A stretch of DNA of 24,000 bases from Paenibacillaceae bacterium (GTDB taxonomy: Bacteria > Bacillota > Bacilli > Paenibacillales > JAWLCZ01), in contig JAWLCZ010000040.1 of assembly GCA_041686835.1 (NCBI GenBank), positions 1 to 24,000 on the forward strand, read 5' to 3'. Below the pieces are notes generated by a model. That model did no database searches and was not told the DNA's origin. It worked only from the letters and a program-made list of their open reading frames with translations. Position 1 is the stretch's first letter; each line of letters begins with the position of its first letter. Shown piece by piece: positions 1 to 23,902 of the stretch. The translations under genes and the position numbers were made by a program.

Positions 1-467
1 TCCATTTGCCGGAAGATCATTTCCACTCCTTCGGAAAAAGAGTCGAAATCTTTATTGTCCCTGCTGGCGGAAATCGCCCGTTCGAAATTGTCCATGACGG
101 GCAGCAGCCGCTCAAGCAGCTTCATGGAAGCGTATTTGGCAAACTCCTCTTTTTCCTGGCGCGTGCGGCGGCGGAAGTTTTCGAAGTCGGCTTGAACCCT
201 GAGATATCGCTGGTAATGTTCGTCCGCCTGCTTGCGCAGTTGTTCCAGCTGATCCTCCGGGCCGGCAGCGGCGGTATCCTGCTCCTCTCCGCTTTCATCG
301 TTTCCGGTCGGCTGTTCCGTACTGCTGTCCGCCGTTTGTTCGCCGTTTTCAGGATATGTAGCCTCTTCGTTCTCCGCCGCGGACGGTTGTTCGGTTTGCT
401 GCTCTTGTTCCTCGTTTGCCTCGTTTACCGCTTTGGATTCGACCGCTTCCTTGTCCGTGTGGTCCAT
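1..467 (-). CDS. grpE: Nucleotide exchange factor GrpE (partial; C-terminus lies beyond the left edge)
   Basis: Absent from the ORF track because it runs off the window. Reverse translation from ATG (467..465) gives MDHTDKEAVESK...EDQLEQLRKQADEHYQRYLRVQADFENFRRRTRQEKEEFAKYASMKLLERLLPVMDNFERAI..., which carries the GrpE LRxxADFxNxRRR signature after an acidic low-complexity N-terminus. RBS AAGGAGGTGA (473..482) lies 5 nt upstream. It occupies the canonical position downstream of hrcA. Confidence 0.9.
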   Translation of the reverse strand, partial: MDHTDKEAVESKAVNEANEEQEQQTEQPSAAENEEATYPENGEQTADSSTEQPTGNDESGEEQDTAAAGPEDQLEQLRKQADEHYQRYLRVQADFENFRRRTRQEKEEFAKYASMKLLERLLPVMDNFERAISASRDNKDFDSFSEGVEMIFRQM

Positions 468-589
468 TCCTGTCACCTCCTTAATATTTGCAAACCGTTC
501 TCCTTGTTTCGATAGGAATATGCAGGCCGGTGAAAATGCGTGTTAACAGTTTTCCCAGCAGATCAGCATCATAAGCATCCACCGGAACG

Positions 590-2125
590 TTAAGCGTCAT
601 CCGGCTTCATCTTAATGACGCTGTGAATGCGCAGCACCGCGCAGGCCACTTCGCCGGCCGCTTGAAGCGCGTGCGCTTTGACGATGGCCGGATCCGCGAT
701 TCCGTTCCGCAAGCAATCGGTCAATGCCCCGGTGTCGCAGTCGATGCCGATGGCGTCGGAACCTTCGGCAATTTGCGCCGCCCGGACTTCCTCGACCTTT
801 TCCAGCGGATTGAAGCCCGCGTTCACGACGATTTGCGCTAGCGGTTTGCGCAGCGCTTGAGCGACCGCGGCAATGCCGAACCCTTCCATTCCTTTCACGG
901 TTTCCCTGTACCGTTCCAGTTCATGGGCAACGGCGATTTCCACAGCGCCGCCGCCGGGCAAATAACCGCCGCGAACCGCCGCCTGCACGGCCGCAGCCGC
1001 ATCTTTGGCGATTCGGGCCCGTTCTCCGACAACCTCTGCCGTCGCCGCTCCGACGACCACCGTAACGACCGGTTTCCCGCTGCCGCCGGCAAGGCGCACC
1101 CGTTCCAGCTTCGGATCGTAGTACACTTCCTCTGCGCGGCCGAGACAGGACGCGAGTTCCTCGGCGGATTTGTTCAGAGCCATTCGTTTGAGCGGCCTCG
1201 CGCCGGTAAATTCGCAAATGCTTTGCACATCCCGGCGCAGCGCCCTCCGGATGAGCATAATTCCGTGATCGGCGCAAAACTGCTCCGCTTCCGGGGCGGC
1301 TCCCCGCTCAACGACAATAAGCCCTACTCCGATGGAAACGAGCTTTTCCAACTGGGCTTTAAACTGTTGTTTCAATCCGATATATTGAGCGAACCCGGCC
1401 TCGGTCGCCAGCGCTTCCTCATCGAGCGTTTCCGGCTCCAGCGCGTCCTGAACGACAAGAACGGCCGTTCCGCGCGCAGCCGTTTCCGCGTGCGCTTCAA
1501 GCGGCTTGCCGCCGATGAAAATGCCGGGCCACACTTCGTTTGCCGCTTTTTCATGAGCGAAAACCGTATCGGCGAAACGAAACTCGTCATCGAGCAAATG
1601 CCGGGTGCCGAGCCTTTCCGCCGCAGTGATGACTAATTCCGCGATATCGCGCTGCTCCCGACCGGCAATAAGGGCAATCCGCCGCAGCATCGGGTCGTCC
1701 AGCCCCTCAATCGGGCGGGCGCGCGACGTAAGTCCGGCGATGGCGCGTTCGATGCCGTCCCGGATGCCGTGAACGATTTTCGCCGCCGGCACGCCGCGGG
1801 TGACGTGCGCCGCCCCTTCGCTTACCAGGGCGCCGGCAAGCACCGTCGCCGTTGTCGTGCCGTCCCCCACGCGGCTTTGCTGGGAGCGGGCGACCTGGAT
1901 CAGCAGCCGGGCGGCGGGATGCGACACGTCCATTTTATCCAGAATGGTCACTCCGTCGTTCGTGATGATGACGTCCCCTCGCGCTCCGACGAGCATGGCG
2001 TCAAGGCCTTTCGGCCCGAGCGTGCCTTCCACGGCCGAACATACCGCGCGTATCGCGGCGGCGTTGTTGAGCAGCGTCGAGTAGCGTTCTTCCCCTTCCA
2101 TATTCCCTTGCTTCGTTTGGCTCAT
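590..2125 (-). CDS. Thermosome-like chaperonin (Cpn60/TCP-1 family, archaeal-type group II/III), 511 aa
   Basis: ORF-track protein MSQTKQGNMEGEERYSTLLNNAAAIRAVCSAVEGTLGPKGLDAMLV...ITNDGVTILDKMDVSHPAARLLIQVARSQQSRVGDGTTTATVLAGAL...LPGGGAVEIAVA. The motifs GPKG(L/M)D, ITNDG(A/V)TIL, HPAA and GDGTTT fit thermosome/CCT-type rather than GroEL-type chaperonins; xGGGAxE is the shared chaperonin ATP-site motif. ATG at 2125 and TAA at 590. The gene lies 51 nt downstream of the hrcA stop and 122 nt upstream of the grpE start. Confidence 0.9.
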   Translation of the reverse strand: MSQTKQGNMEGEERYSTLLNNAAAIRAVCSAVEGTLGPKGLDAMLVGARGDVIITNDGVTILDKMDVSHPAARLLIQVARSQQSRVGDGTTTATVLAGALVSEGAAHVTRGVPAAKIVHGIRDGIERAIAGLTSRARPIEGLDDPMLRRIALIAGREQRDIAELVITAAERLGTRHLLDDEFRFADTVFAHEKAANEVWPGIFIGGKPLEAHAETAARGTAVLVVQDALEPETLDEEALATEAGFAQYIGLKQQFKAQLEKLVSIGVGLIVVERGAAPEAEQFCADHGIMLIRRALRRDVQSICEFTGARPLKRMALNKSAEELASCLGRAEEVYYDPKLERVRLAGGSGKPVVTVVVGAATAEVVGERARIAKDAAAAVQAAVRGGYLPGGGAVEIAVAHELERYRETVKGMEGFGIAAVAQALRKPLAQIVVNAGFNPLEKVEEVRAAQIAEGSDAIGIDCDTGALTDCLRNGIADPAIVKAHALQAAGEVACAVLRIHSVIKMKPDDA

Positions 2126-2176: not shown

Positions 2177-3202
2177 TTACTTGTACCAGCGCGCGAACAT
2201 AACGGCCAAATCTTTGGACAAATGATCGAGCAGGCTGATCACTTTGCCGTATTCCATCCGGGTCGGTCCGAGAATGCCGATCGTTCCGAGCGACTGGCCT
2301 TCAATCGAATAGGTCGCGGTAATCAGGCTGCAGTTGCTAATCGCATCCACACTGTTCTCCGTGCCGATTTTGACCTGGATGCCTTCGGGCATGGAACTGA
2401 ACAGCCGCATCAGCGTATGCGTTTCGTCAAACAGATCGAGGATGGATTTCACTTTCTCCACATCCCTGAATTCCGGCTGGATCAGCATATTGGACGTACC
2501 GCTCAGGAAAATGCGGTTATCGTCGTCGTTTTCGAACACGGATTCGATCATGCGGATCAATTCTTCATATCTGGACACATATTTGCTCAGTTCCGATCCG
2601 ATTTCGTTGTACAGCTTCGATCTCAGTTGGAAAAGCGGTACGCCGACCAGCTTCGCGTTCAGGATCGACACCACTTTCTCGATTTCCGAAATCGGGATGC
2701 CTTCGGGAATCGTCACCACTTTGTTTTCCACGTGTCCGGTGTTCGTCACGATGATCGCTACGGCGGATTCATCGTTCAAAGGGACGAGCTGCATATGCTT
2801 CAGCGTAGCGCTGAACACTTCGGGACCGAGCACGATCGACGTATAGTTGGTCAAATTGGACAAAATCGTCGCCGCTTGCTGAATGACCTGCTCGGTTTCC
2901 TGAATTTTCTCGGCAAAGAAAGACTTGAGCACTTCCAGCTCATGTCTGGACAAATCTTCCAATTTGATGAGATGATCGACATAATACCTGTAGCCTTTAT
3001 GAGAAGGAATGCGGCCGGCAGACGTATGCGGCTGCTCCAAAAAACCCATCTCCTCCAGATCGGACATCTCGTTGCGGATCGTTGCCGGGCTGAACCCGAT
3101 GTCTCCGCGCTTCGATATCGTTCTGGAACCTACAGGCTCGGCTGAACGGATATAGTCGTCAACGATAATGCTCAATATCATTTTCTGGCGTTGCGTAAGC
3201 AT
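2177..3202 (-). CDS. hrcA: Heat-inducible transcription repressor HrcA (341 aa)
   Basis: MLTQRQKMILSIIVDDYIRSAEPVGSRTISKR... is a typical HrcA N-terminal winged-helix domain. The track ORF (to 3349) has a 49-aa extension; I trimmed it to ATG 3202, which is preceded by CCGGAGGATAATT (GGAGG RBS). A CIRCE operator lies upstream. Confidence 0.95.
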   Translation of the reverse strand: MLTQRQKMILSIIVDDYIRSAEPVGSRTISKRGDIGFSPATIRNEMSDLEEMGFLEQPHTSAGRIPSHKGYRYYVDHLIKLEDLSRHELEVLKSFFAEKIQETEQVIQQAATILSNLTNYTSIVLGPEVFSATLKHMQLVPLNDESAVAIIVTNTGHVENKVVTIPEGIPISEIEKVVSILNAKLVGVPLFQLRSKLYNEIGSELSKYVSRYEELIRMIESVFENDDDNRIFLSGTSNMLIQPEFRDVEKVKSILDLFDETHTLMRLFSSMPEGIQVKIGTENSVDAISNCSLITATYSIEGQSLGTIGILGPTRMEYGKVISLLDHLSKDLAVMFARWYK

Positions 3203-3358
3203 AATTATCCTCCGGAAAGGCATGAAGCCGCGAAGGCGCAGCTTATGCCGAACATCGAGTTTTACGGACGGGGCTTTGCTCCGTCCGGCACAAATCCCGC
3301 CGCAAAGACGGGACTTTACCCGGATCGGGCTTCCGGGACAAAAATCCATCGAAAGTGA

Positions 3359-3385
3359 TTAGCACTCGGATTAAATGAGTGCTAA
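3359..3385 (-). promoter_or_regulatory. CIRCE operator (HrcA binding site), perfect consensus
   Basis: TTAGCACTC (3359-3367), a 9-nt spacer GGATTAAAT, then GAGTGCTAA (3377-3385). This matches the TTAGCACTC-N9-GAGTGCTAA consensus exactly and lies immediately downstream of the candidate promoter. Confidence 0.95.
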
Positions 3386-3396
3386 CCATCAATACA

Positions 3397-3426
3397 AAAA
3401 TATCAGACCGGAACGCTTGTTGTCAA
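3397..3426 (-). promoter_or_regulatory. Candidate sigmaA promoter of the hrcA-chaperonin-grpE operon
   Basis: On the minus strand: TTGACA (3426..3421), an 18-nt spacer, then TGaTATTTT (extended -10; hexamer 3402..3397). The predicted TSS falls at the edge of CIRCE, the usual arrangement for CIRCE-controlled operons. Confidence 0.5.
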
Positions 3427-3427
3427 G

Positions 3428-3898
3428 TCAATCCAGTCTTTTCAACACGGCAATTTCGTCGCAGCAGTGCTGCTTTTTGCAGTGAATGCAGTCGATCCAC
3501 ACCTTTTCGGGGAATATTTCCTTGGGAACGACGGTAAATCCGTTTTTCTGGAAGAAAGCGACCTCATAGGTGAGCGCCATCACTTTCGGAACGCCCATTT
3601 CTTTGGCTTCTTCCACCAAAAAGTCGACAAGCTTCCGCCCGATCCCGGCCCCTTTGTATTGTTCCGTCACGCCAAGGGAACGGATTTCCACCAAATCCTG
3701 CCCGAGCCGGCACAGCGAACCGCAGCCGACAACGACGCCTTCCACCTCGGCCACGACGAAGCTTCCGATTTGCGCCGAGAGCGCCTCCCGCGTTCTCGGC
3801 AGCATAATGCCTTTTTCCGCATAGTGTTGAATAATCGCAAACAAAGAATCGACGTCGGACGCCGCCGCTTTTCTGCAAGTGGCCGTCACTGTGCCCAT
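3428..3898 (-). CDS. GNAT-family N-acetyltransferase (156 aa)
   Basis: MGTVTATCRKAAASDVDSLFAIIQHYAEKG...LGVTEQYKGAGIGRKLVDFLVEEAK contains the GNAT motif A (Q/RxxGxG/A). The track ORF was trimmed to ATG 3898 (M24), which follows a GGGTGGGA RBS. Confidence 0.85.
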   Translation of the reverse strand: MGTVTATCRKAAASDVDSLFAIIQHYAEKGIMLPRTREALSAQIGSFVVAEVEGVVVGCGSLCRLGQDLVEIRSLGVTEQYKGAGIGRKLVDFLVEEAKEMGVPKVMALTYEVAFFQKNGFTVVPKEIFPEKVWIDCIHCKKQHCCDEIAVLKRLD

Positions 3899-4046
3899 AT
3901 CGCATCCCACCCAGGTCAAACTAGAAACATATGAATAAATATACATCATTGCGTATATGGAGCACAAGAGTTTTTTGCCCTTTCGGAACCGTTCCGGTCG
4001 GGTTTATTTCAGGCAGGCCAGACAATGCCCCGGCAGGCTCGGCAGG

Positions 4047-5195
4047 TTATAAAATAAATTCGGCGAAAACTTCGTTTCCGAGCAAAATGCCGCGTTCCGT
4101 CAAACGATACCCTTCCGGCGTCGATTCGAGCAAACCGCGGCCGAGCAAACGGCCGATCTCCCGCCCGAACACGTCGTCGACAGCGCAGCCGAACTGCGCA
4201 AAAAAGTCTTGCCGGCGAACCCCGCGCAGCATGCGCAAACCGACCATCATAAAATCTTCCATCGCTTCTTTCCGGCTTACCTCGCACGACTCCATTCTCG
4301 GCAGCCCTTTCTTCGCCGCGTCGATGTACGGCTGAACCCCCTTGACGTTTACGTGCCTGACGCCGTGCGCGTAGCCGTGCGCCCCCGCGCCGATACCGTA
4401 GTAGCTCTCGTTGCGCCAATACGTCATATTGTGTCTGCTCTCGTATCCCGGCTTCGCAAAATTGCTGATCTCGTACTGCTCGTATCCCGCTTCCTTAAGC
4501 CTTCTCATAATGAGCAAATACATCTGCAGCTCCTCCTCCTCGTCGGGAAGCGGAAGCTGGTTTTTCCGGTACAGCGTATGAAACAGCGTATTTTCCTCCA
4601 CTTTCAGGCTGTAAATCGAATAATGCTCCAGACCGAGCGCGAGCGCGGCCGTCAGGCTGTCGTCCATCATGCCGACCGTTTGTTTCGGCAGACCGAACAT
4701 CAAATCGATGGAAAGGTTGGTAAAGCCGGTTTTCCGCGCATTTTCGATGCTGCGGTACACGTCGTCCGTCGTATGGATGCGGCCGATTCGCTCCAGCAGC
4801 CCGTTATCGAACGACTGTACGCCGAAGCTGATGCGGTTTACTCCGCCGGCTTTCATCACGGCCAGTTTTTCTTCATCCGTCGTGCCCGGGTTCGCTTCCA
4901 TCGTAAACTCGGCCGTGTCGCCGAACGGGAAATAGTTTCTCACGGCACGCAAAAAATAGTCCATCTGCTCGGGCATCAGCACGGTCGGAGTTCCGCCGCC
5001 GACGAAAATCGTCTCGATCCGTTCCGGAGGAATGAGCCGCACCGTCCGCTCCATTTCCCGTTCCAAAGCCTGCAAATATTCCATGACCGGCTGCCCGTTG
5101 ACGATATAGGAATTAAAATCGCAATAATGGCACTTGTTCGTGCAGAACGGTATATGAATGTAAACCGCCTTGGGCGCCGCCGTCAGTTGAATCAT
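4047..5195 (-). CDS. hemW: Radical SAM heme chaperone HemW (HemN-like, oxygen-independent coproporphyrinogen oxidase family)
   Basis: MIQLTAAPKAVYIHIPFCTNKCHYCDFNSY contains the CxxxCxxC radical-SAM cluster motif, and FVGGGTPT is also present. Trimmed to ATG 5195 (GGGAG RBS upstream). Its position in the lepA-hemN-hrcA backbone matches Bacillus. Confidence 0.9.
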   Translation of the reverse strand: MIQLTAAPKAVYIHIPFCTNKCHYCDFNSYIVNGQPVMEYLQALEREMERTVRLIPPERIETIFVGGGTPTVLMPEQMDYFLRAVRNYFPFGDTAEFTMEANPGTTDEEKLAVMKAGGVNRISFGVQSFDNGLLERIGRIHTTDDVYRSIENARKTGFTNLSIDLMFGLPKQTVGMMDDSLTAALALGLEHYSIYSLKVEENTLFHTLYRKNQLPLPDEEEELQMYLLIMRRLKEAGYEQYEISNFAKPGYESRHNMTYWRNESYYGIGAGAHGYAHGVRHVNVKGVQPYIDAAKKGLPRMESCEVSRKEAMEDFMMVGLRMLRGVRRQDFFAQFGCAVDDVFGREIGRLLGRGLLESTPEGYRLTERGILLGNEVFAEFIL

Positions 5196-5274
5196 CGTTC
5201 GTTCACTCCCGCTGGGTCGTTTATATGACATCGTATCACAAAAACGGGAGGAAGGCTAAGCAGGGAAAATTTGC

Positions 5275-7938: not shown

Positions 7939-9753
7939 TTATTCGTCGATTTTCAACACGGCCATGAACGCTTCCTGCGGCACTTCGACGGTGCCGACCT
8001 GCTTCATCCGTTTTTTCCCTTCCTTCTGCTTCTCCAGCAGCTTTCTTTTCCGGGAAATGTCGCCGCCGTAGCATTTGGCCAGCACGTTTTTGCGCATCGC
8101 TTTCACCGTTTCGCGGGCGATGACTTTATTGCCGATGGCCGCCTGAATCGGCACTTCGAACATTTGCCGCGGGATGATCTCCCGCAGCTTCTCGCATAAT
8201 ACGCGGCCCCGCTGGTAGGCGCGATCCCGGTGCACAATGAACGAAAGCGCGTCGACCTTCTCCCCGTTGAGCAGGATGTCCATTTTGACGAGATTCGATT
8301 GGCGGTAGCCGGACAGCTCATAGTCGAAAGAAGCGTATCCTTTCGTGCTCGACTTGAGCTGATCGAAGAAATCGTACACGATTTCGGACAGCGGAATGTC
8401 GTAAGTGAGCGTGACCCGGTTCGTGTCCAAATATTCCATGTTCAGAAATTCGCCGCGCTTCGACTGGCACAATTCCATAATCGCCCCGACATAGTCGTTG
8501 GGCACGATAATCGAAGCCTTGACATACGGTTCTTCGACGCGTTCGATTTTACCGGTTTCCGGCATGTTCGTCGGGTTGTCGATTTCCAGCACTTCCCCGC
8601 TGGTCGTCGTGACCTTGTAGATTACGCTTGGCGCCGTCGTTATGAGCGGGATATTGAACTCTCTTTCAATCCGTTCCTGGATAATTTCCATGTGCAGCAG
8701 CCCGAGAAAGCCGCAGCGAAAACCGAAGCCGAGCGCCGTCGACGTTTCCGGTTCGTACCGGAGCGACGCGTCGTTCAGTTCCAGCTTCTCCAACGCTTCG
8801 CGCAGGTCGTCGTAATCCGACGTGTCGATCGGGTACAGTCCGCAAAACACCATCGGATTGATGCGCCGATAACCGGGAAGCGGTTCTGCGGCGGGGTTGG
8901 CGGCATCGGTGATCGTATCGCCGACGCGCGTATCCTTCACGTTTTTGATTCCGGCGACGACGAAGCCGACGTCCCCCACGTTCAGTTCATCGACGATGGT
9001 CATGCGCGGTTTGAACACGCCGACCTCAATCACTTCGAACGTTTTGTCCGTCGCCATCATTTTGATTTTCGATCCGGGCCTGATTTTGCCGTCCATGATC
9101 CGGACGTAAGTGATGACGCCTTTATACGGGTCATAGTGCGAGTCGAAGATGAGCGCCTTGAGCGGCTTGTCCGCATCTCCGGACGGCGCGGGCACTTTCT
9201 TGACGATTTGCTCCAATATTTCCTTGATGCCGATTCCCGCTTTCGCCGAAGCAAGCACCGCTTCGCTCGCGTCAAGGCCGATGATGTCTTCGATTTCCTG
9301 CTTCACCCTGTCCGGTTCCGCGCTGGGCAGGTCGATTTTGTTGATGACCGGCAATATCTCAAGATTGTTGTCCAACGCCAAATAGACGTTGGCCAGCGTC
9401 TGCGCTTCGATGCCCTGCGCCGCATCGACGACAAGCAGCGCCCCTTCGCAGGCGGCCAAGCTGCGGGATACTTCGTACGTGAAGTCGACGTGCCCGGGGG
9501 TGTCGATCAAATTGAGCACATATTCTTCCCCGTCGTCAGCACGGTAGTTCAGGCGCACCGCCTGCAGTTTTATCGTAATGCCGCGCTCCCTTTCCAGTTC
9601 CATCTGATCCAGCACCTGATCCTGCATTTCCCGGTTGGACAGCGCGCCTGTATATTCCAGTATTCGGTCGGCCAAAGTGGATTTGCCGTGATCGATATGC
9701 GCGATAATGCAAAAATTGCGAATCTTTTGTTGTCTGTTCTGATCGTCAGCCAT
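7939..9753 (-). CDS. lepA: Elongation factor 4 (LepA), 604 aa
   Basis: [34 protein letters not shown]... carries the GTPase motifs [14 protein letters not shown] and NKID and has the LepA-typical C-terminal domain. RBS GGTGGGGG upstream. Confidence 0.97.
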
Positions 9754-9822: not shown

Positions 9823-10206
9823 TTAATCGAGTATTCCGTCCAGTAACGATACGAATCCTTTAATGGCATAATGCGCCAATATTTGCAGCAGATCGCCCGT
9901 CTTTGCCGCCAGATGGCGCACCAACGGCCGCTCCCCGGAGTCGTGCGGTTCCACGGCTTCGGCACCCGCCAACCGCTCCGGCGGCCTCTCCGCTGCCGGC
10001 GGAGGGGCTTGTACGTTGGGCGCTCGCACCGCGGACGTCCCGGGTTTCCCGGCGACGTTCGCCTTAAGCGGCGCGTCCGCCGCCGTCTGTGCGGCCATCG
10101 GACCGTTGATGCGCTCGATTCCCCGTGTCGCCATGTCTACCCCGAAAAACATGCCCAAAACTACAAGCGCGCCGAGAAACATCATTTTCATCGCATAGCG
10201 AGGCAT
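9823..10206 (-). CDS. YqxA-like small membrane protein (DUF3679-like), 127 aa
   Basis: MPRYAMKMMFLGALVVLGMFFGVDMATRGIERING... has an N-terminal TM helix followed by a Pro/Ala-rich linker. It sits between spoIIP and lepA, as yqxA does in B. subtilis. Trimmed to ATG 10206 on the spacing of the GGGGA RBS. Confidence 0.7.
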   Translation of the reverse strand: MPRYAMKMMFLGALVVLGMFFGVDMATRGIERINGPMAAQTAADAPLKANVAGKPGTSAVRAPNVQAPPPAAERPPERLAGAEAVEPHDSGERPLVRHLAAKTGDLLQILAHYAIKGFVSLLDGILD

Positions 10207-10253
10207 ATTCATTCCCCACGTTTCCGCCATTTATCCGAATCGGACGCCCGCCG

Positions 10254-11709: not shown

Positions 11710-11732
11710 AAAAAAAGCTCCTTACCGGAGCC
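11710..11732 (-). terminator. Weak candidate terminator overlapping the stop of the upstream gene
   Basis: On the minus strand: GGCTCC-ggtaa-GGAGCT (6 bp including one G-U pair) followed by TTTTTTT. The TAA stop (11724..11722) lies in the loop. Confidence 0.35.
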
Positions 11733-12846
11733 GCGCAGAACGGGATATCGTATGAATACAGCCGATTTTCCATCCGTCATTCCATGTTTTTTGCAGTTGA
11801 AAATAGAGCGTCGTTTTTTGTTTCCCCGTACCCACGCGATAAATTTCCGTTTCGACGGGAATTTCCGTCAGCAACAGACCGGCGGTATCGGAGACGGGGA
11901 GAGAGGAACGCTGACGGACGGCCTTCACATTCCCCATGTTTTCCAGAAAAGACTCCAGCTGATTCCCGTTGCCGGGAGCGAAGCTCATTTCAAGCAGCTG
12001 CGAATCTTTTTCATGCAGCGCCGTCATGAACACCCGCACCAATTCGTCCGGGGTCAATCCGCGAAAATATTCCTCCAATTTCCCTGCGGCCCGGTAAACC
12101 ATCAGTTGATGATCCGGGTCTTTGTTGCCGGATCCGTGCGTCACGCTGTCGAGAAAATGGATGCAAAAGTGACCGGAAAACGCGTTGCCGGAAATCCCGT
12201 CTCCGCCGTGCGGCATCCCGTTCATCGACGCGGCGATGAACCGTCCGTCTTTATGGACGAGAATCGCCCTTCTTTTCCAGCTCCATTCCCCGCCGTAAAC
12301 GCGTTTCATCGTCTGCGTATCTTCTTTGGACAAAGGCTGGACATCGGCGTGATGTTTTCCCGCTCTTCGCTGCACGTTGAAGCGGAGCCCCGACTCCAGA
12401 TCGATGACGGTAAACTTGCTTTTTCGCGAAACGATCTCCTTCGCGACGTCCCACGGCATGAGGGTTCCGTAGTGCGCTGCCCTTAACGAATCGGCGTACT
12501 GCCGGAGGCGGGCTTTGAGGGCACCGGGGAATTTCAACGCTTCTCCGTTCTCGGCGTCATATAAGGTGCCGGAACGATCCATGATATACGTCCCTTGCAA
12601 TTTAGGGTGTTCAATCGTAACGTAAACGTCGGATACGGGAATATGACCCGCCTTGCTTTTTACCGATCGCTTTACGATGCGATCGAGCATGGGGCCTGAA
12701 ATGACCGTCAGCTTCGACTGATGAGTCGCTCCCGGCGACGATTGAACGACAATAGCGAGCCGTTTGGCCGGTTCGGCGGAAACGGGATTCGCCGGATAAG
12801 TCAGAAGCATGCAGCCGAATAACAAGGTTGCGATTCTTTGGAGCAT
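11722..12846 (-). CDS. Uncharacterised secreted protein (374 aa) with a His-rich conserved core
   Basis: MLQRIATLLFGCMLLTYPANPVSAEPAKR looks like a signal peptide. The core segment YGGEWSWKRRAILVHKDGRFIAASMNGMPHGGDGISGNAFSGHFCIHFLDSVTHGSG looks enzyme-like, but I cannot assign a family. Trimmed to ATG 12846 (GGAGG 9 nt upstream). Confidence 0.75.
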   Translation of the reverse strand: MLQRIATLLFGCMLLTYPANPVSAEPAKRLAIVVQSSPGATHQSKLTVISGPMLDRIVKRSVKSKAGHIPVSDVYVTIEHPKLQGTYIMDRSGTLYDAENGEALKFPGALKARLRQYADSLRAAHYGTLMPWDVAKEIVSRKSKFTVIDLESGLRFNVQRRAGKHHADVQPLSKEDTQTMKRVYGGEWSWKRRAILVHKDGRFIAASMNGMPHGGDGISGNAFSGHFCIHFLDSVTHGSGNKDPDHQLMVYRAAGKLEEYFRGLTPDELVRVFMTALHEKDSQLLEMSFAPGNGNQLESFLENMGNVKAVRQRSSLPVSDTAGLLLTEIPVETEIYRVGTGKQKTTLYFQLQKTWNDGWKIGCIHTISRSARLR

Positions 12847-12913
12847 TGAACGTTTCCTCCGCAATCGAGTATAGGCTTAAATACGTCCGCTGCGCTGCGC
12901 AAAAGATGCGGCC

Positions 12914-15694: not shown

Positions 15695-16924
15695 TTAATT
15701 TTTCGTTTCGGTCTTCTTATCGACGTCAATGGTGAACTGCTGCTCCGTTTCCCCGGAGACGACCCGGTACGTCAACGTTAAATTGTCCATCCATCGGAAC
15801 AGTTGGACTCTGTCGGATTCCTCCCATTGGTGCTCCGAAACGAAAACGCGCTCTCCCGTCTTCGCATTCGTGATGACGACTTGACGGTTTTCGACTGCCG
15901 CGTTGTAAAGTCCGTCCGGAGAGGTAAGCTGCTGCCGATCCGGCTCGATTGGCGCGAAGAAAGCGGTATGATGTTCCCGGTTTCCCGCTTTTCCCGCATC
16001 CGGAGCTGGCTGTTCCGGCATGATCGTAATCCCGTACAAAGGTTCCTCGGCTTTCCGTTTCCCGTCTTCCTGCCCCACTTGTTCATCTATTCGATTGCCG
16101 GCTGCCGGCTCATCCTCCGGCTGCCGTCGTTCGGGACTATCGCCGGTCGACACGTTGGATGCCGGGTCTTTCTTTATCGTATTTTCATTCGCCGACGCGT
16201 CCGCCGCTTGTTTCTTTCCGTTTCCGGATTCATTTGCCGCCGCGGCATCGGCGGTCTTCTCCCGTTTAGTGTTCGCTGCGGCGGCAGGGGTGTCCTGTTT
16301 ACCGCCCGGCTTCTGATCGAACGTTTGCGCGGATGCGTCGTTATCGGCGCTCGTATCGGCAGTCGTATCGGCGGCAGTCGTACCGGCGATCTCATGATCC
16401 AACGGCGCCTGTTTATCGACTTCACGGTTACTGCCGCTCGCCGGGGCGTCTTCCGCCGCCGAACTGGAGCTTTCGGCGCCGTCCTTGGCCGCTTCGTTCA
16501 ACAGCAGTTCATCGGCTTGTTCAGAAGAAGGACGCTGGCCGATGCCGGCGATAAACATGCCGATAACGATGCCTGCGGCGACGACGCCGCTGACCGTCTT
16601 GAACGGGAACCGAGCAATCCATCTTCGCGTCCGGTTTCCGGATGGGCGTAATGCCGTCGCCCCCGCAGCATTCGCGCGATCAGGCTCGTCCCCGGCAAGT
16701 TGATCGAGTTGTTCCAGCTTCGGAAGGATCGCGTCCACCAAACTGTGCGGAGGAATGACTTTCGGCAAATTGTGCAGTTCGTTAGAAAGGTGCTGCAGAC
16801 GTTCGTACATTTCGGCACACGCGGAACAACGGCGCAGATGCGCAACCATCGCTTCTTGTTCGTTTTCGTTCAGGTCCCCGTCCAGGTCCCTCTGCATCAG
16901 TTCCATCACCTCATCACAAATCAT
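15695..16924 (-). CDS. Anti-sigma factor (zf-HC2 type), single-pass membrane protein with a long acidic low-complexity linker
   Basis: MICDEVMELMQRDLDGDLNENEQEAMVAHLRRCSACAEMYERL carries the H-x3-C-x2-C zinc motif. The TM segment is FKTVSGVVAAGIVIGMFIAGIG. Next comes an A/D/E/T/K-rich region of roughly 170 aa, then a C-terminal beta-rich domain. The start is ATG 16924, or GTG 16930 overlapping the sigma-factor stop (GTGTGA). Confidence 0.85.
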   Translation of the reverse strand: MICDEVMELMQRDLDGDLNENEQEAMVAHLRRCSACAEMYERLQHLSNELHNLPKVIPPHSLVDAILPKLEQLDQLAGDEPDRANAAGATALRPSGNRTRRWIARFPFKTVSGVVAAGIVIGMFIAGIGQRPSSEQADELLLNEAAKDGAESSSSAAEDAPASGSNREVDKQAPLDHEIAGTTAADTTADTSADNDASAQTFDQKPGGKQDTPAAAANTKREKTADAAAANESGNGKKQAADASANENTIKKDPASNVSTGDSPERRQPEDEPAAGNRIDEQVGQEDGKRKAEEPLYGITIMPEQPAPDAGKAGNREHHTAFFAPIEPDRQQLTSPDGLYNAAVENRQVVITNAKTGERVFVSEHQWEESDRVQLFRWMDNLTLTYRVVSGETEQQFTIDVDKKTETKN

Positions 16925-16926
16925 CC

Positions 16927-17469
16927 TCACACACCACCTTTCTGATATTCTTGAAGGAGGGATTGCAATTGCTGCCTCGCCCGGAACAAGTAAGATTTGA
17001 CCGTGTTTAAAGGCAAGCCCAGGGAATCGGCAATCTCGTTATATGAAAACTCCTGCAAATATCGCAAAACAACGACGGCCCGATGATGTTCGGGCAGTTT
17101 GTCAATCGCTTCCCGTATATCTTTCGCAATATCGGAGGACACTACTTGTTCTTCCACATTTCGCTCCGCCGTAAACACCATATTGTGTTCTTCGATGGAA
17201 ACGGTCGCTTTCGTTTTGCGGAATTTGTCAATGCAAATGTTGGTTACAATACGCTGCACCCATGTTTTAAACAGCGCTTTTTCCTCGTATGAATTGATTT
17301 TCGTATAAATGCGAAGGAGCGCCTCCTGGGCCGCATCCATCGCATCCTGTTCGTTTCCAAGAATATAAAACGCGGTGCGGTAAACATGTGTTTCGATTTG
17401 TCGCAACAGAGAAATGAGAGCATCGCGATCGCCCGACTGCGCCGCTCTGATCAGTTCTGGTTCAACCAC
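16927..17469 (-). CDS. ECF (sigma-70 group 4) RNA polymerase sigma factor, 180 aa
   Basis: Region 2 is DAMDAAQEALLRIY...FKTWVQRIVTNICIDKFRK and region 4 is LPEHHRAVVVLRYLQEFSYNEIADSLGLPLNTVKSYLFRARQQL. GTG start at 17469 with a GAGAGGGGG RBS. Translationally coupled to the downstream anti-sigma gene. Confidence 0.9.
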   Translation of the reverse strand: MVEPELIRAAQSGDRDALISLLRQIETHVYRTAFYILGNEQDAMDAAQEALLRIYTKINSYEEKALFKTWVQRIVTNICIDKFRKTKATVSIEEHNMVFTAERNVEEQVVSSDIAKDIREAIDKLPEHHRAVVVLRYLQEFSYNEIADSLGLPLNTVKSYLFRARQQLQSLLQEYQKGGV

Positions 17470-20377: not shown

Positions 20378-20405
20378 CAATGTATGTTTATCCGCGCCCA
20401 GACGT
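20378..20405 (-). promoter_or_regulatory. Candidate sigmaK-type promoter for the gerP operon
   Basis: On the minus strand: AC (20405..20404), a 17-nt spacer, then CATAcatTg (20386..20378), about 33 nt upstream of the gerPA ATG. The consensus is AC-N17-CATAnnnTA. gerP is sigmaK-dependent in B. subtilis. Confidence 0.35.
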
Positions 20406-20428
20406 TCATCGCGCGCCTGCGCTCAATC

Positions 20429-20456
20429 ACTTTCGCCTGCAAGGGCACATATAATA
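20429..20456 (+). promoter_or_regulatory. Consensus sigmaK-type promoter for the Hsp20-like gene
   Basis: AC (20429-20430), a 17-nt spacer, then CATATAATA (20448-20456). This matches AC-N17-CATAnnnTA exactly and lies 90 nt upstream of ATG 20546. Confidence 0.45.
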
Positions 20457-20545
20457 AGAAAAAGCATCTGTCGAAGCCTTTCGAAGATAAGTCACCGCCA
20501 ATCGGGATTTTCATACATCGTGTCAGAGAAGGAGGGAAGCGCGCC

Positions 20546-20995
20546 ATGAGCAAGCCGGACAAAAACCATTTTTTTGATTGGAAAAAGATGGAGAGTATTT
20601 TCGGAAAACAATTTCCTTTCAGCACATTGTCGGGAAACAAGTCATTCGATTTGTCCTGGGTGGAGGACTACGTGAAGAGCGTCATGAAGCAAGCGATGCC
20701 GCAAAATGATCAACCCGACGAGCTTGAAAGCGAGGTGTTCGAAACGCACCGGGACGTCATCGCCAAAATTGCCGTTCCGGAACATATATCGCCCGGCGAT
20801 CTGCGAATTTTTGCCGCCTCAAACCAAATCAGGCTTGAAGGGCTGCCCGGAGGAGCCAAACAGTTCATCCCGCTGCCGGCGCACGTGAATCCGGGAGTGA
20901 GCAGAGCCCTTATGAAGCAAGGCGTGCTGCAGATACAAATGCGCAAGCAAAACAAGGAAGAGCAGTATAAAGAAATATTCATCCGGTATCACTAG
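20546..20995 (+). CDS. Small Hsp20/alpha-crystallin-like protein, probable spore-coat/germination-associated (CotP/GerT-like), 149 aa
   Basis: The C-terminal half EVFETHRDVIAKIAVPEHISPGDLRIFAASNQIRLEG...IPLPAHVNPGVSRALMKQGVLQIQMRK follows the alpha-crystallin domain layout. The track ORF was trimmed to ATG 20546 (AAGGAGGG RBS 9 nt upstream). The spore role is inferred from the promoter and the gerP neighbourhood. Confidence 0.7.
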   Translation: MSKPDKNHFFDWKKMESIFGKQFPFSTLSGNKSFDLSWVEDYVKSVMKQAMPQNDQPDELESEVFETHRDVIAKIAVPEHISPGDLRIFAASNQIRLEGLPGGAKQFIPLPAHVNPGVSRALMKQGVLQIQMRKQNKEEQYKEIFIRYH

Positions 20996-21932: not shown

Positions 21933-22319
21933 ATGATGTATATGGCGATAGGCGTCGGCGGAATCATCGGGGCCCTGCTCCGGTTTTATCTGGGAATCTA
22001 CATACACTCATGGTGGACGGATCCGTTCCCGCTCGGAACGCTTGCCGCCAATTACTTGGGCTGCATCGCCCTCGGCGCGTTCTCCGCGTGGGTTTCCGCC
22101 GTAAAATCGGTGCCCGTTTGGCTGCAGGCGGGAATTTCCACGGGCGTCATCGGTTCGTTTACAACCTTTTCCACATTCAGCATCGAAACGATGGAATTGT
22201 TTCAGAACGGATTGAACGCTCTCGGTTGTATCTATATATTGTCAAGCCTGTTCGGAGGGCTCGCCCTGGCCTGGCTCGGACGCGCCATTGTGGCAAGCCG
22301 GTCCGGCATTCGACACTAG
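21933..22319 (+). CDS. crcB: Fluoride ion channel CrcB/FluC, subunit 1 (128 aa)
   Basis: MMYMAIGVGGIIGALLRFYLG...GVIGSFTTFSTFSIE shows the CrcB GxxGxxxR and GSFTTFSTF motifs. RBS AAGGTGG 10 nt upstream. Confidence 0.9.
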   Translation: MMYMAIGVGGIIGALLRFYLGIYIHSWWTDPFPLGTLAANYLGCIALGAFSAWVSAVKSVPVWLQAGISTGVIGSFTTFSTFSIETMELFQNGLNALGCIYILSSLFGGLALAWLGRAIVASRSGIRH

Positions 22320-22334
22320 GAGGTGCGGCACACC

Positions 22335-22703
22335 ATGATATCCGCTTCGATACTGGTCGCCATCGGCGGGTTTTGGGGAGCGATAGCCCGTTATTCGGTC
22401 AACCGGTGGGCGGCCAGAACGATTCCGTCCGTCTTTCCTTACGGTACGCTGCTGGTCAATGCGCTGGGCAGCTTCTTATTGGGATATCTTATCGGCATGC
22501 GGGCGGAACAAAGGCTCGTGCTTTTGCTCGGGACCGGATTCATGGGCTCGTTCACGACGTTTTCCACTTTTAAAGCGGAGAGCGTTCAACTGGCCAGGAC
22601 GAAACAGTGGTCCGTATTTTACTTGTATATCGCCATCAGCTACATTTCCGGCATCGTCCTGGCGTTCGCGGGATATGCCCTCGGACGGCAGACGTCCGCC
22701 TAA
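22335..22703 (+). CDS. crcB: Fluoride ion channel CrcB/FluC, subunit 2 (122 aa)
   Basis: MISASILVAIGGFWGAIARYSV...GFMGSFTTFSTFKAE. The track's GTG start at 22323 overlaps the AGGAGG RBS (22318-22323), so ATG 22335 is preferred. A paired arrangement is typical of heterodimeric Fluc channels in Firmicutes. Confidence 0.9.
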   Translation: MISASILVAIGGFWGAIARYSVNRWAARTIPSVFPYGTLLVNALGSFLLGYLIGMRAEQRLVLLLGTGFMGSFTTFSTFKAESVQLARTKQWSVFYLYIAISYISGIVLAFAGYALGRQTSA

Positions 22704-23068
22704 TCGGCGTTGAACCATTCCTCCTCCCACTCGTCCCTTTCATGCTCGCTGCACCATTGGTAATTCCGCCATTTGAACGTTTGGACATAATTTTTCAGCA
22801 TCGCCATCCGAGTCCGTTTCTGCGATTCGGTCAGCGCCCCGGCCGAAGCGTAAGTGTGAATCATGTCGAGATAGTCCATATAGATCCGGTGATAGATTTG
22901 ATCCAGCCGTTTTTTCGTTGCTGCAGATAATTTCACTTTGCGCGTGCAGTCCATTTCGTCGCGATCGTCCCGCGCTTGAGCTGAGGACGGTGCGGCCCAC
23001 CCCGCCTGTGGCGCGGCAAGGGACAGGCCGAGAACGAGCAGGATTGCCAATTTCCCCAATTTACCCAT
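22700..23068 (-). CDS. Small secreted protein of unknown function (122 aa)
   Basis: MGKLGKLAILLVLGLSLAAPQAGWA looks like a signal peptide. A helical, charged body follows, ending in WRNYQWCSEHERDEWEEEWFNAD. Trimmed to ATG 23068 (AAGGAGG 6 nt upstream). Its stop codon overlaps the crcB2 stop codon (CTAA). Confidence 0.7.
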   Translation of the reverse strand: MGKLGKLAILLVLGLSLAAPQAGWAAPSSAQARDDRDEMDCTRKVKLSAATKKRLDQIYHRIYMDYLDMIHTYASAGALTESQKRTRMAMLKNYVQTFKWRNYQWCSEHERDEWEEEWFNAD

Positions 23069-23236
23069 ATTCATCCTCCTTGTTGATTGTAGTGCTTTCC
23101 CCACATTGTCCCCCATCATTCGCTTTTCATGTGCGTTTCACCCTATGCATATTTATCCAGTTCGTTCCCGTTTTTTCTAAATATACTGTAGTAGCCGGAT
23201 TGCTCGGTACATCCTTTCCATAACGGGGAGATACGC

Positions 23237-23437
23237 ATGAAAAAGAACATCCTGGTCGTTAAAACGAACCTGCTGCCCTGGTACGACGAGTTAAGCGACT
23301 GCCTTGAGCTGCACCGGGATGATTTTCCGAAAGGCGCGCTGCGGAAAATCGCAAAGTTTGGAACATGCACGCTGCAGCATATCGACAACAAAAAATCGGT
23401 GTTCGTTCGCGACAATGAACGCACGGATGCACTGTAA
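23237..23437 (+). CDS. Hypothetical small protein (66 aa)
   Basis: Strong GC3 bias in this frame, unlike the overlapping minus-strand ORFs. RBS GGGGAG 7 nt upstream of the ATG. I recognise no family. Confidence 0.55.
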   Translation: MKKNILVVKTNLLPWYDELSDCLELHRDDFPKGALRKIAKFGTCTLQHIDNKKSVFVRDNERTDAL

Positions 23438-23470
23438 GACGAACGCATACTTGGAACGGGAGGTGTCTTT

Positions 23471-23902
23471 TTGTTGACGGCAATCATGATCGTCTGTTTT
23501 CTGCTGGTCAAGCTGGCCATGCCGATGTCCGGTTCGTTGAACGATAGATTTGCCGGGGCGGAGGGGTGGTGCTTGAATATCGACAGCCCTGTCGTCTACT
23601 TGAGCAAATTTTCCGTTCCCGACGGCAGTGAACGAGTTCATATGCGCATATGGCAGGAACAGGCCGCGAATCCCGTACGGTATTCCATCGTAAAAAGGAA
23701 GGGATTCGGCAGCCCGGCGTATTTCGCCAGTTTCACGGTTGCCGATAATTATCCCCGGTCCGGGCCGGCGTTTGAGCATTCGTTTGCGGACATTCCCCCC
23801 GGTTCCGGCTATGAAATCGAAGTGTACAATTACGGCGGCAGTTTATGTTACGGGCAGGTAAACGTCGATGTATGCCCGCACATGGACAATGATATGGACT
23901 GA
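23471..23902 (+). CDS. Hypothetical membrane-anchored or secreted protein (143 aa)
   Basis: TTG start 5 nt after a GGGAGGTG RBS (23458-23465). Hydrophobic N-terminus LTAIMIVCFLLVKLAMP. Coding-like GC3 bias. I recognise no family. Confidence 0.55.
   Translation: MLTAIMIVCFLLVKLAMPMSGSLNDRFAGAEGWCLNIDSPVVYLSKFSVPDGSERVHMRIWQEQAANPVRYSIVKRKGFGSPAYFASFTVADNYPRSGPAFEHSFADIPPGSGYEIEVYNYGGSLCYGQVNVDVCPHMDNDMD

Follow-up and report, generated by a model that had tools for sequence, protein, structure and literature searches.

A Group III chaperonin gene in the predicted HrcA/CIRCE-controlled dnaK operon of a Paenibacillaceae bacterium

What kind of chaperonin is encoded by a gene of thermosome-like appearance that lies in the genome of a spore-forming bacterium, and what might it do there? 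The question is raised by a gene, here called cpn, at positions 590..2125 (minus strand) of a 24,000-nucleotide stretch of DNA (the window: positions 1 to 24,000 of contig JAWLCZ010000040.1, assembly GCA_041686835.1) from a Paenibacillaceae bacterium. A first-pass annotation of this DNA had taken the product for an archaeal-type chaperonin of the kind reported in Carboxydothermus hydrogenoformans, and had held that its presence in a Paenibacillus-like organism would extend the known distribution of that clade. Our analysis indicates, with a probability that we put at about 90%, that cpn encodes the subunit of a Group III chaperonin, that it belongs to a dnaK operon under the control of HrcA and its operator CIRCE (controlling inverted repeat of chaperone expression), and that its product serves as an accessory folding chamber. 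Family membership, diagnostic residues, insertions and deletions (indels), predicted fold, operon anatomy and conservation over the Paenibacillaceae were all observed here, and are taken up in this order.

The open reading frame (ORF) of cpn is intact, begins with an ATG codon and encodes a protein of 511 amino acids (aa), which was assigned to the Group III (bacterial thermosome-like) chaperonins on the basis of Pfam and NCBIfam profiles, relatives in the Protein Data Bank (PDB), a tree, indels and an AlphaFold model. The four motifs from which a thermosome/CCT-type protein had been proposed were all found in the translation: GPKGLD at residues 37-42, ITNDGVTILDKMDVSHPAA at residues 54-72, VGDGTTTATVLAG at residues 86-98 and LPGGGAVE at residues 389-396. 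A search with the hidden Markov model of the family (PF00118, Cpn60_TCP1) gave a full-length match (protein residues 30-508, profile positions 3-490 of 490) with an E-value of 3.5e-104, which places it far beyond chance. The annotated start codon was supported by the conservation of the N-terminus, since the pattern MSQxKQxxxEGEERY was kept in 51 homologues, and a GGAGAGG ribosome-binding site lies ahead of the gene within the 51-nucleotide (nt) gap that separates it from hrcA. About 100 alignment columns were invariant over 52 sequences, including GDGTTT, R156, D375 and the GGG motif; D375 and GDGTTT (G87-T92) were invariant or nearly so in 52 Paenibacillaceae sequences.

The best NCBIfam matches of the protein were thermosome models, TIGR02339 with 268 bits (cutoff 671) and NF041082 with 261 bits (cutoff 450), both of which fell far short of their cutoffs. 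The GroEL models, the principal ones having cutoffs of 352-582 in NCBIfam, matched two partial stretches only and with no more than 179 bits (179 against a cutoff of 352, and 150 against one of 582). That no curated cutoff was reached is the signature expected for a relative of the thermosome and GroEL families that is a member of neither. The earlier impression that the protein does not look like GroEL was borne out by these scores and by an identity of only 24% with GroEL of Escherichia coli. Nevertheless, the partial GroEL matches were significant and multiple GroEL copies occur in some Firmicutes and in many other bacteria (PMC5220055), as would suit a divergent extra GroEL paralogue of Group I working with GroES, a reading to which we return with the structural evidence.

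Among sequences in the PDB, the closest was 9RWQ (E=5e-184), followed by Ch-CPN, the chaperonin of C. hydrogenoformans (5X9U, E=1.6e-126), with thermosomes at 4e-61 or weaker. The phmmer scores had the same order, with 616 bits for ACIII, a reconstructed Group III ancestor, 426 bits for Ch-CPN and at most 210 bits for thermosomes, as had the identities, which were 59% to ACIII, 44% to Ch-CPN and 29-36% to Group II references. The alignment with Ch-CPN was nearly free of gaps across 500 residues. According to the data-availability statement of the study that produced it, 9RWQ is ACIII (PMC12696368). The PDB gives the molecule name of 9RWQ as 'Ancestral Group II Chaperonin (ACII)', yet the indels in its sequence are those of Group III; the deposited entry seems to be mislabelled.

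In order to place the protein among the chaperonin groups, a bootstrapped neighbour-joining (NJ) tree was calculated from Kimura-corrected distances. The alignment of 135 sequences and 499 columns comprised the query, 17 Paenibacillaceae homologues, 111 representatives, five PDB references and E. coli GroEL, which served as outgroup; the representatives were near full length (460-600 aa) and had been collected by searching 1.84 billion cluster representatives exhaustively with HMMER. The query fell inside a Paenibacillaceae clade (support 82/100), which in turn was nested in a larger clade of 60 members containing Ch-CPN and ACIII (63/100). In 169 of 200 bootstraps, these two grouped with the query to the exclusion of ACII, two thermosomes and GroEL. 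A clustering inside GroEL, which the first-pass annotation had named as fatal to its own reading, was thus not what the tree gave: the query stood with the Group III references, outside both GroEL and Group II. The search for representatives also brought up two double-length homologues, P0153 (1057 aa) and P0172 (1047 aa), in each of which PF00118 is present as two complete domains; they are 26-28% identical to the query and could be subunits joined in tandem or gene calls that were fused.

The features by which An et al. (2017) defined Group III are a six-residue deletion of the nucleotide-sensing loop, an Arg, a four-residue deletion in the lid, a catalytic Asp and hydrophobic residues in the lid (PMC5635000), and the query carries every one of these characters. 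The span of the nucleotide-sensing loop (residues 147-170 of the query) has 24 residues in the query and in 60/60 members of the clade, while 67 of the 74 Group II sequences have 30 residues there. R156 of the query aligns with R155 of Ch-CPN, and D375 corresponds to its catalytic Asp, D373. The lid span has 35 residues, against 39 in Group II and 15 in GroEL, and the hydrophobic residues of its tip, L239, F245, Y248 and F255, correspond to L237, F243, Y246 and F253 of Ch-CPN.

The predicted structure agreed with this assignment. The AlphaFold2 model, for which 52 sequences were used, was confident (predicted local distance difference test, pLDDT, 89.7; predicted template modelling score, pTM, 0.86) and contained an apical helical protrusion at residues 238-264, that is, the built-in lid for which a structure prediction had been recommended. 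When the model was compared with the PDB by Foldseek, the best match was Ch-CPN in its closed state (5X9V; template modelling, TM, scores of 0.90/0.93, root-mean-square deviation 2.3 Å), followed by the open form (5X9U; TM 0.89/0.91), with deviations of 2.3-2.7 Å. All Group II structures ranked below these two (TM 0.78-0.87), and every one of the 50 matches listed was a chaperonin of Group III or Group II.

These results decide on the GroEL paralogue. The span of its nucleotide-sensing loop, 24 residues, equals that of GroEL, which together with the partial profile matches is what such a paralogue would be expected to have. The apical insertion of the lid, in contrast, is one that GroEL lacks, no groES lies next to cpn, the GroEL cutoffs were missed by a wide margin and no GroEL was among the listed Foldseek matches; because of the lid insertion and the phylogeny we regard this reading as refuted, with practically no probability left to it. 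The assignment to the bacterial Group III clade of the C. hydrogenoformans type, on which sequence, tree, indels and structure matches agree, was therefore correct in the first-pass annotation, and nothing that we found contradicts membership of this group.

The thermosome-like character of the protein could also have had another origin, namely a true Group II thermosome gene acquired by recent horizontal transfer from an archaeon. A thermosome model as the best NCBIfam match, a predicted fold close to those of Group II and the guanine-plus-cytosine (GC) content of cpn, 62.8% against 51-57% in its neighbours, would all be in keeping with such a transfer. However, neither thermosome cutoff was approached, the nucleotide-sensing loop of Group II is missing and the Group III lid deletion is present, and the NJ tree set the query apart from Group II. 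The GC peak was considered as a signal of transfer and rejected: the excess was found in codon positions 1 and 2, whereas the GC content at codon position 3 (GC3) was 0.707, like that of the neighbours (0.62-0.74), and over seven related loci, with a locus GC of 41-60%, the GC3 of cpn ranged from 0.34 to 0.89 in step with the host genome. The high GC content of the gene is rather due to a protein rich in Ala (16.6%), Gly (9.8%) and Arg (7.4%). As an observation in its own right, the GC content of cpn exceeds that of its neighbours in the window by 6-12 points, and it was also higher than that of the neighbours in 7/7 related loci.

The distribution of the gene also argues against an archaeal transfer. 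A protein search gave 3,843 relatives at E<=1e-20, and the named entries among the best 120 of these included more than 45 Paenibacillus species as well as Gorillibacterium and metagenome-assembled genomes of Bacillaceae and Bacilli, with identities of 58-69%; most of the named entries were annotated as 'TCP-1/cpn60 chaperonin family protein' and a few as 'thermosome-like protein' or 'archaeal chaperonin'. The order lepA-hemW-GNAT-CIRCE-hrcA-cpn was identical in eight reference genomes (seven Paenibacillus and one Gorillibacterium). In the seven loci that reach beyond cpn it is followed by grpE, the Gorillibacterium contig stopping within cpn, and in P. psychroresistens the operon runs on into dnaK and dnaJ. 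Pairwise distances of cpn followed those of hrcA (Spearman 0.85, 28 pairs). On the grounds of synteny, GC3 and the hrcA-correlated distances, we argue for a long vertical residence of cpn in the dnaK operon of the family, as an old inherited component and not a recent import; the archaeal transfer is effectively refuted already, and we give it next to no weight.

The same distribution bears on the novelty that had been claimed for the gene. With orthologues in more than 45 Paenibacillus species among the best 120 relatives, and with the same locus in eight genomes, this gene does not extend the known distribution of the group. The first-pass annotation had conceded that its novelty would fall if the gene proved ubiquitous and already characterised in close relatives; orthologues are annotated across Paenibacillus, and the query protein itself was already among the NCBI sequences. 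The clade to which it referred is real, but its occurrence 'in a few Firmicutes' was an understatement, as 195 Group III paralogues, and their location in the dnaK operon, had been noted by 2017 (PMC5635000). The first-pass reading is thus right on identity and wrong on novelty, because the family, its structure and the Paenibacillus locus were already known.

On the minus strand, the order of the elements is promoter, CIRCE, hrcA, a 51-nt gap, cpn, a 122-nt gap and grpE. The putative promoter, of the sigma-A type, was located by a consensus scan at 3397..3426 (minus strand; TTGACA, a spacer of 16-18 nt and GATATT/TATTTT with TG; 10 of 12 positions), 12 nt upstream of the CIRCE operator. The latter, at 3359..3385, matches perfectly the consensus TTAGCACTC-N9-GAGTGCTAA, by which it is a binding site for HrcA; it was the single perfect copy in the window, where 100 shuffles gave an expectation of 0, and a perfect CIRCE was found at the equivalent place upstream of hrcA in 8/8 related loci. 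The hrcA gene (2177..3202, minus strand, 341 aa) encodes the heat-inducible transcriptional repressor, as identified by the equivalog model TIGR00331 (363 bits, cutoff 197) and by the Pfam families HrcA and HrcA_DNA-bdg. With a perfect CIRCE between the promoter and the first gene, and with HrcA encoded by that gene, the operon is predicted to be repressed by HrcA.

The longest ORF of hrcA would start at 3349, 10 nt past CIRCE, and has 390 aa, so that an automatic call would add 49 codons. The alignment of TIGR00331, however, begins only at residue 52 of this ORF, the eight related loci aligned from MLTQRQ with residues 1-341 end to end, and a GGAGG ribosome-binding site lies ahead of the ATG at 3202. 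This homology and the ribosome-binding site make 3202 the likely start of hrcA, rather than 3349.

Of grpE, the window holds the 5' part (1..467, minus strand, 155 codons), which begins with MDHTDKEAVE after an AAGGAGG ribosome-binding site and runs off the end of the window. This fragment was 44-68% identical to the ORF that follows cpn in seven loci; in P. psychroresistens that ORF belongs to the GrpE equivalog NF010738 (185 bits, cutoff 137), and DnaK and DnaJ come next. A site scan of the 51-nt and 122-nt gaps found no terminator-like site, and neither spacer, when examined for an attenuator or a processing hairpin as well, contained a hairpin unusually stable in comparison with shuffled sequences (z = -0.42 for hrcA-cpn and +0.22 for cpn-grpE). 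It is most likely, judging from this arrangement, that hrcA, cpn and grpE are co-transcribed, together with dnaK and dnaJ. Group III genes have been described as sitting in the dnaK (Hsp70) operon 'with one exception' (PMC5635000), and the same location was found here, the window providing hrcA-cpn-grpE and P. psychroresistens adding dnaK-dnaJ.

How such a chaperonin might work is proposed here from Ch-CPN as the prototype and from the HrcA/CIRCE paradigm, which are the sources for the proposals on subunit assembly, the ATP cycle, induction by heat and the cooperation with DnaK. Ch-CPN was crystallised in 2017 in the open and closed forms cited above (An et al. 2017) and is a homo-hexadecamer made up of two octameric rings; it closes when ATP binds, with a Hill coefficient of about 1 (PMC5635000). 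By analogy, identical subunits of the Paenibacillaceae protein would build a homo-hexadecamer in which two eight-membered rings are stacked. ATP would bind to the equatorial domain at the GDGTTT site, where Arg156 would touch the gamma-phosphate in place of the Lys of the deleted nucleotide-sensing loop, and Asp375 would catalyse hydrolysis. Binding of ATP would bring the short two-helix lids side by side and close the ring over a client with low cooperativity; neither GroES nor prefoldin should be required, each subunit having its own short helical apical lid. HrcA would repress the operon, and heat or protein-folding stress would relieve the repression, so that the chaperonin would be made together with GrpE, DnaK and DnaJ and could act as an accessory folding chamber beside DnaK and the GroEL/GroES of the cell.

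A more specific role may be proposed tentatively, although we consider it rather doubtful, namely that the conserved place of cpn between hrcA and grpE reflects something beyond shared regulation. In Bacillus, the activity of HrcA depends on free GroEL, and for this reason the Group III cage of the Paenibacillaceae might be a back-up chamber that is switched on when GroEL is saturated. It might at the same time work specifically downstream of DnaK/DnaJ/GrpE, as a partner to which clients are passed directly through the hydrophobic tip of its lid. Such a hand-off of clients from DnaK to a Group III chaperonin is a proposal in the literature that was never demonstrated (PMC5635000). If this role were true, a Paenibacillus, genetically tractable and mostly mesophilic, would be the first system in which to study what Group III chaperonins do in vivo.

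Several points limit the reading of cpn as an active, HrcA-controlled accessory chaperonin of the dnaK operon. The tree is distance-based, and the Group III clade as a whole has moderate support (63/100 and 169/200). Co-transcription was deduced from spacing and from the absence of terminators, and a weak promoter-like match lies in the cpn-grpE spacer (517-546, minus strand; TTAACA, 18 nt, CATATT; 9 of 12 positions), which might serve grpE-dnaK as an internal promoter or have arisen by chance. The oligomeric state, ATPase behaviour and heat induction were extrapolated from a protein of a thermophilic anaerobe that is 44% identical. Finally, cpn diverges faster than its neighbours, with a mean p-distance of 0.387 against 0.324 for hrcA; the identities between the window and the related loci were 58-66% for cpn, 84-89% for lepA, 65-72% for hemW and 62-77% for hrcA. 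This faster divergence could reflect relaxed constraint or an accessory role, and suggests that the constraint on cpn is weaker than would be expected of an essential chaperonin.

Carried further, the faster evolution of cpn would fit a decaying or functionless relic that is retained in the operon after its chaperonin activity was lost. The host presumably has GroEL/GroES, and the orthologues are without a known phenotype in a native host, both of which would also be compatible with a relic. What speaks for a working protein instead is an ORF that is intact, of full length and with a conserved start, the roughly 100 invariant columns that include the catalytic motifs, the hydrophobic residues kept in the lid together with a confident model, and the retention of the same locus across genomes whose locus GC ranges from 41 to 60%. 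Moreover, both Ch-CPN and the resurrected ancestor hydrolyse ATP and protect client proteins (PMC5635000; PMC12696368). We hold a relic to be improbable, and keep to the reading of cpn as a functional Group III chaperonin.

Among known systems, Ch-CPN resembles the query in its 44% identity, the absent nucleotide-sensing loop, the Arg and Asp residues, the two-helix lid with its four hydrophobic residues and the location in a dnaK operon, and differs in a sequence divergence of 56% and in its host, a thermophilic anaerobic carboxydotroph rather than a Paenibacillus-like sporeformer. Most Paenibacillus are mesophilic aerobes or facultative anaerobes. ACIII has the same indels as the query and is, as 9RWQ, the closest solved sequence; it is, however, a computational reconstruction and not a natural protein. 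It was reconstructed in 2025, assembles into double octameric rings and has ATPase activity, and its map allowed the modelling of the equatorial domains only (PMC12696368).

The Group II chaperonins (thermosomes and CCT/TRiC; 1A6D, 3KFB) share with the query the three-domain Cpn60/TCP-1 fold, an apical lid, independence from GroES, and GDGTTT with the catalytic Asp, but their nucleotide-sensing loop is six residues longer and bears a Lys, their lid is four residues longer and their identity to the query is low (29-36%). In Group II, a beta-strand of the lid gives an iris-like closure, and the ring closes on hydrolysis of ATP, cooperatively, and works with prefoldin (PMC5635000). The lid mechanism, the relationship to GroEL and the substrates had all been called largely open; the first two, including the relationship to Groups I and II, have been addressed for the prototype, by 5X9U/5X9V and by ancestral reconstruction (PMC12696368).

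The hrcA-grpE-dnaK-dnaJ operon of Bacillus subtilis is alike in its sigma-A-type promoter, its CIRCE consensus, hrcA as the first gene and grpE following, and differs from the operon described here, where hrcA and grpE are separated by cpn and a GNAT gene stands between hemW and the promoter. Upstream, lepA and hemW (hemN in B. subtilis) are neighbours in that organism too. In the window, lepA (7939-9753, minus strand) and hemW (4047-5231, minus strand) were identified by profile matches, and the gene for the GNAT N-acetyltransferase (3428-3967, minus strand) by NF005840 (177 bits, cutoff 154). The GNAT gene had its place between hemW and the hrcA promoter in 8/8 related loci as well, and we take it not to be part of the classical hemN-hrcA arrangement of B. 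subtilis.

The remainder of the window is a standard Bacillales neighbourhood, which also encodes SpoIIP, Gpr, GerPC, GerPE, holA and a pair of extracytoplasmic function (ECF) sigma and anti-sigma factors. The presence of spoIIP, gpr, gerP and other neighbours of Bacillales type confirms a spore-forming Firmicute as host, and the neighbours were 62-89% identical to Paenibacillus proteins; the earlier description of a GC-rich, Paenibacillus-like sporeformer therefore stands, except that the window is GC-rich only moderately (53.9%). No GroEL gene was found in the window of about 24 kb.

Some further observations concern the rest of these 24 kb. Behind the gene of the ECF sigma factor (180 aa), and overlapping it by 4 nt, comes that of a zf-HC2 anti-sigma factor of 411 aa (the pair at 15695-17469, minus strand, adjoining holA), and the sigma gene has the lowest GC of the window (0.47, GC3 0.51). 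Six candidate ORFs of 135-380 aa had no Pfam match at E<=1e-3, namely those at 9823-10230, 11722-12864, 22700-23119 and 23291-23779 (minus strand) and at 20384-20995 and 22010-22573 (plus strand); the one of 380 aa is located between gpr and spoIIP and extends over the start of spoIIP by 59 nt.

The value of this gene as a discovery is small: the Group III chaperonins were reportedly described by Techtmann and Robb in 2010, which is when the family received its name, the prototype was crystallised in 2017, an ancestor was resurrected in 2025 and the orthologues of the locus are annotated. Nevertheless, the family has barely been studied, especially in vivo, and our literature search combining Paenibacillus, chaperonin and thermosome found no study of a Paenibacillus orthologue. 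The stable presence of cpn in Paenibacillus shows that Group III chaperonins are not confined to extremophiles, and these culturable, mostly mesophilic aerobic bacteria, with their CIRCE-hrcA-cpn-grpE-dnaK operon, offer a practical system for the study of the clients of Group III chaperonins and of their proposed coupling to DnaK.

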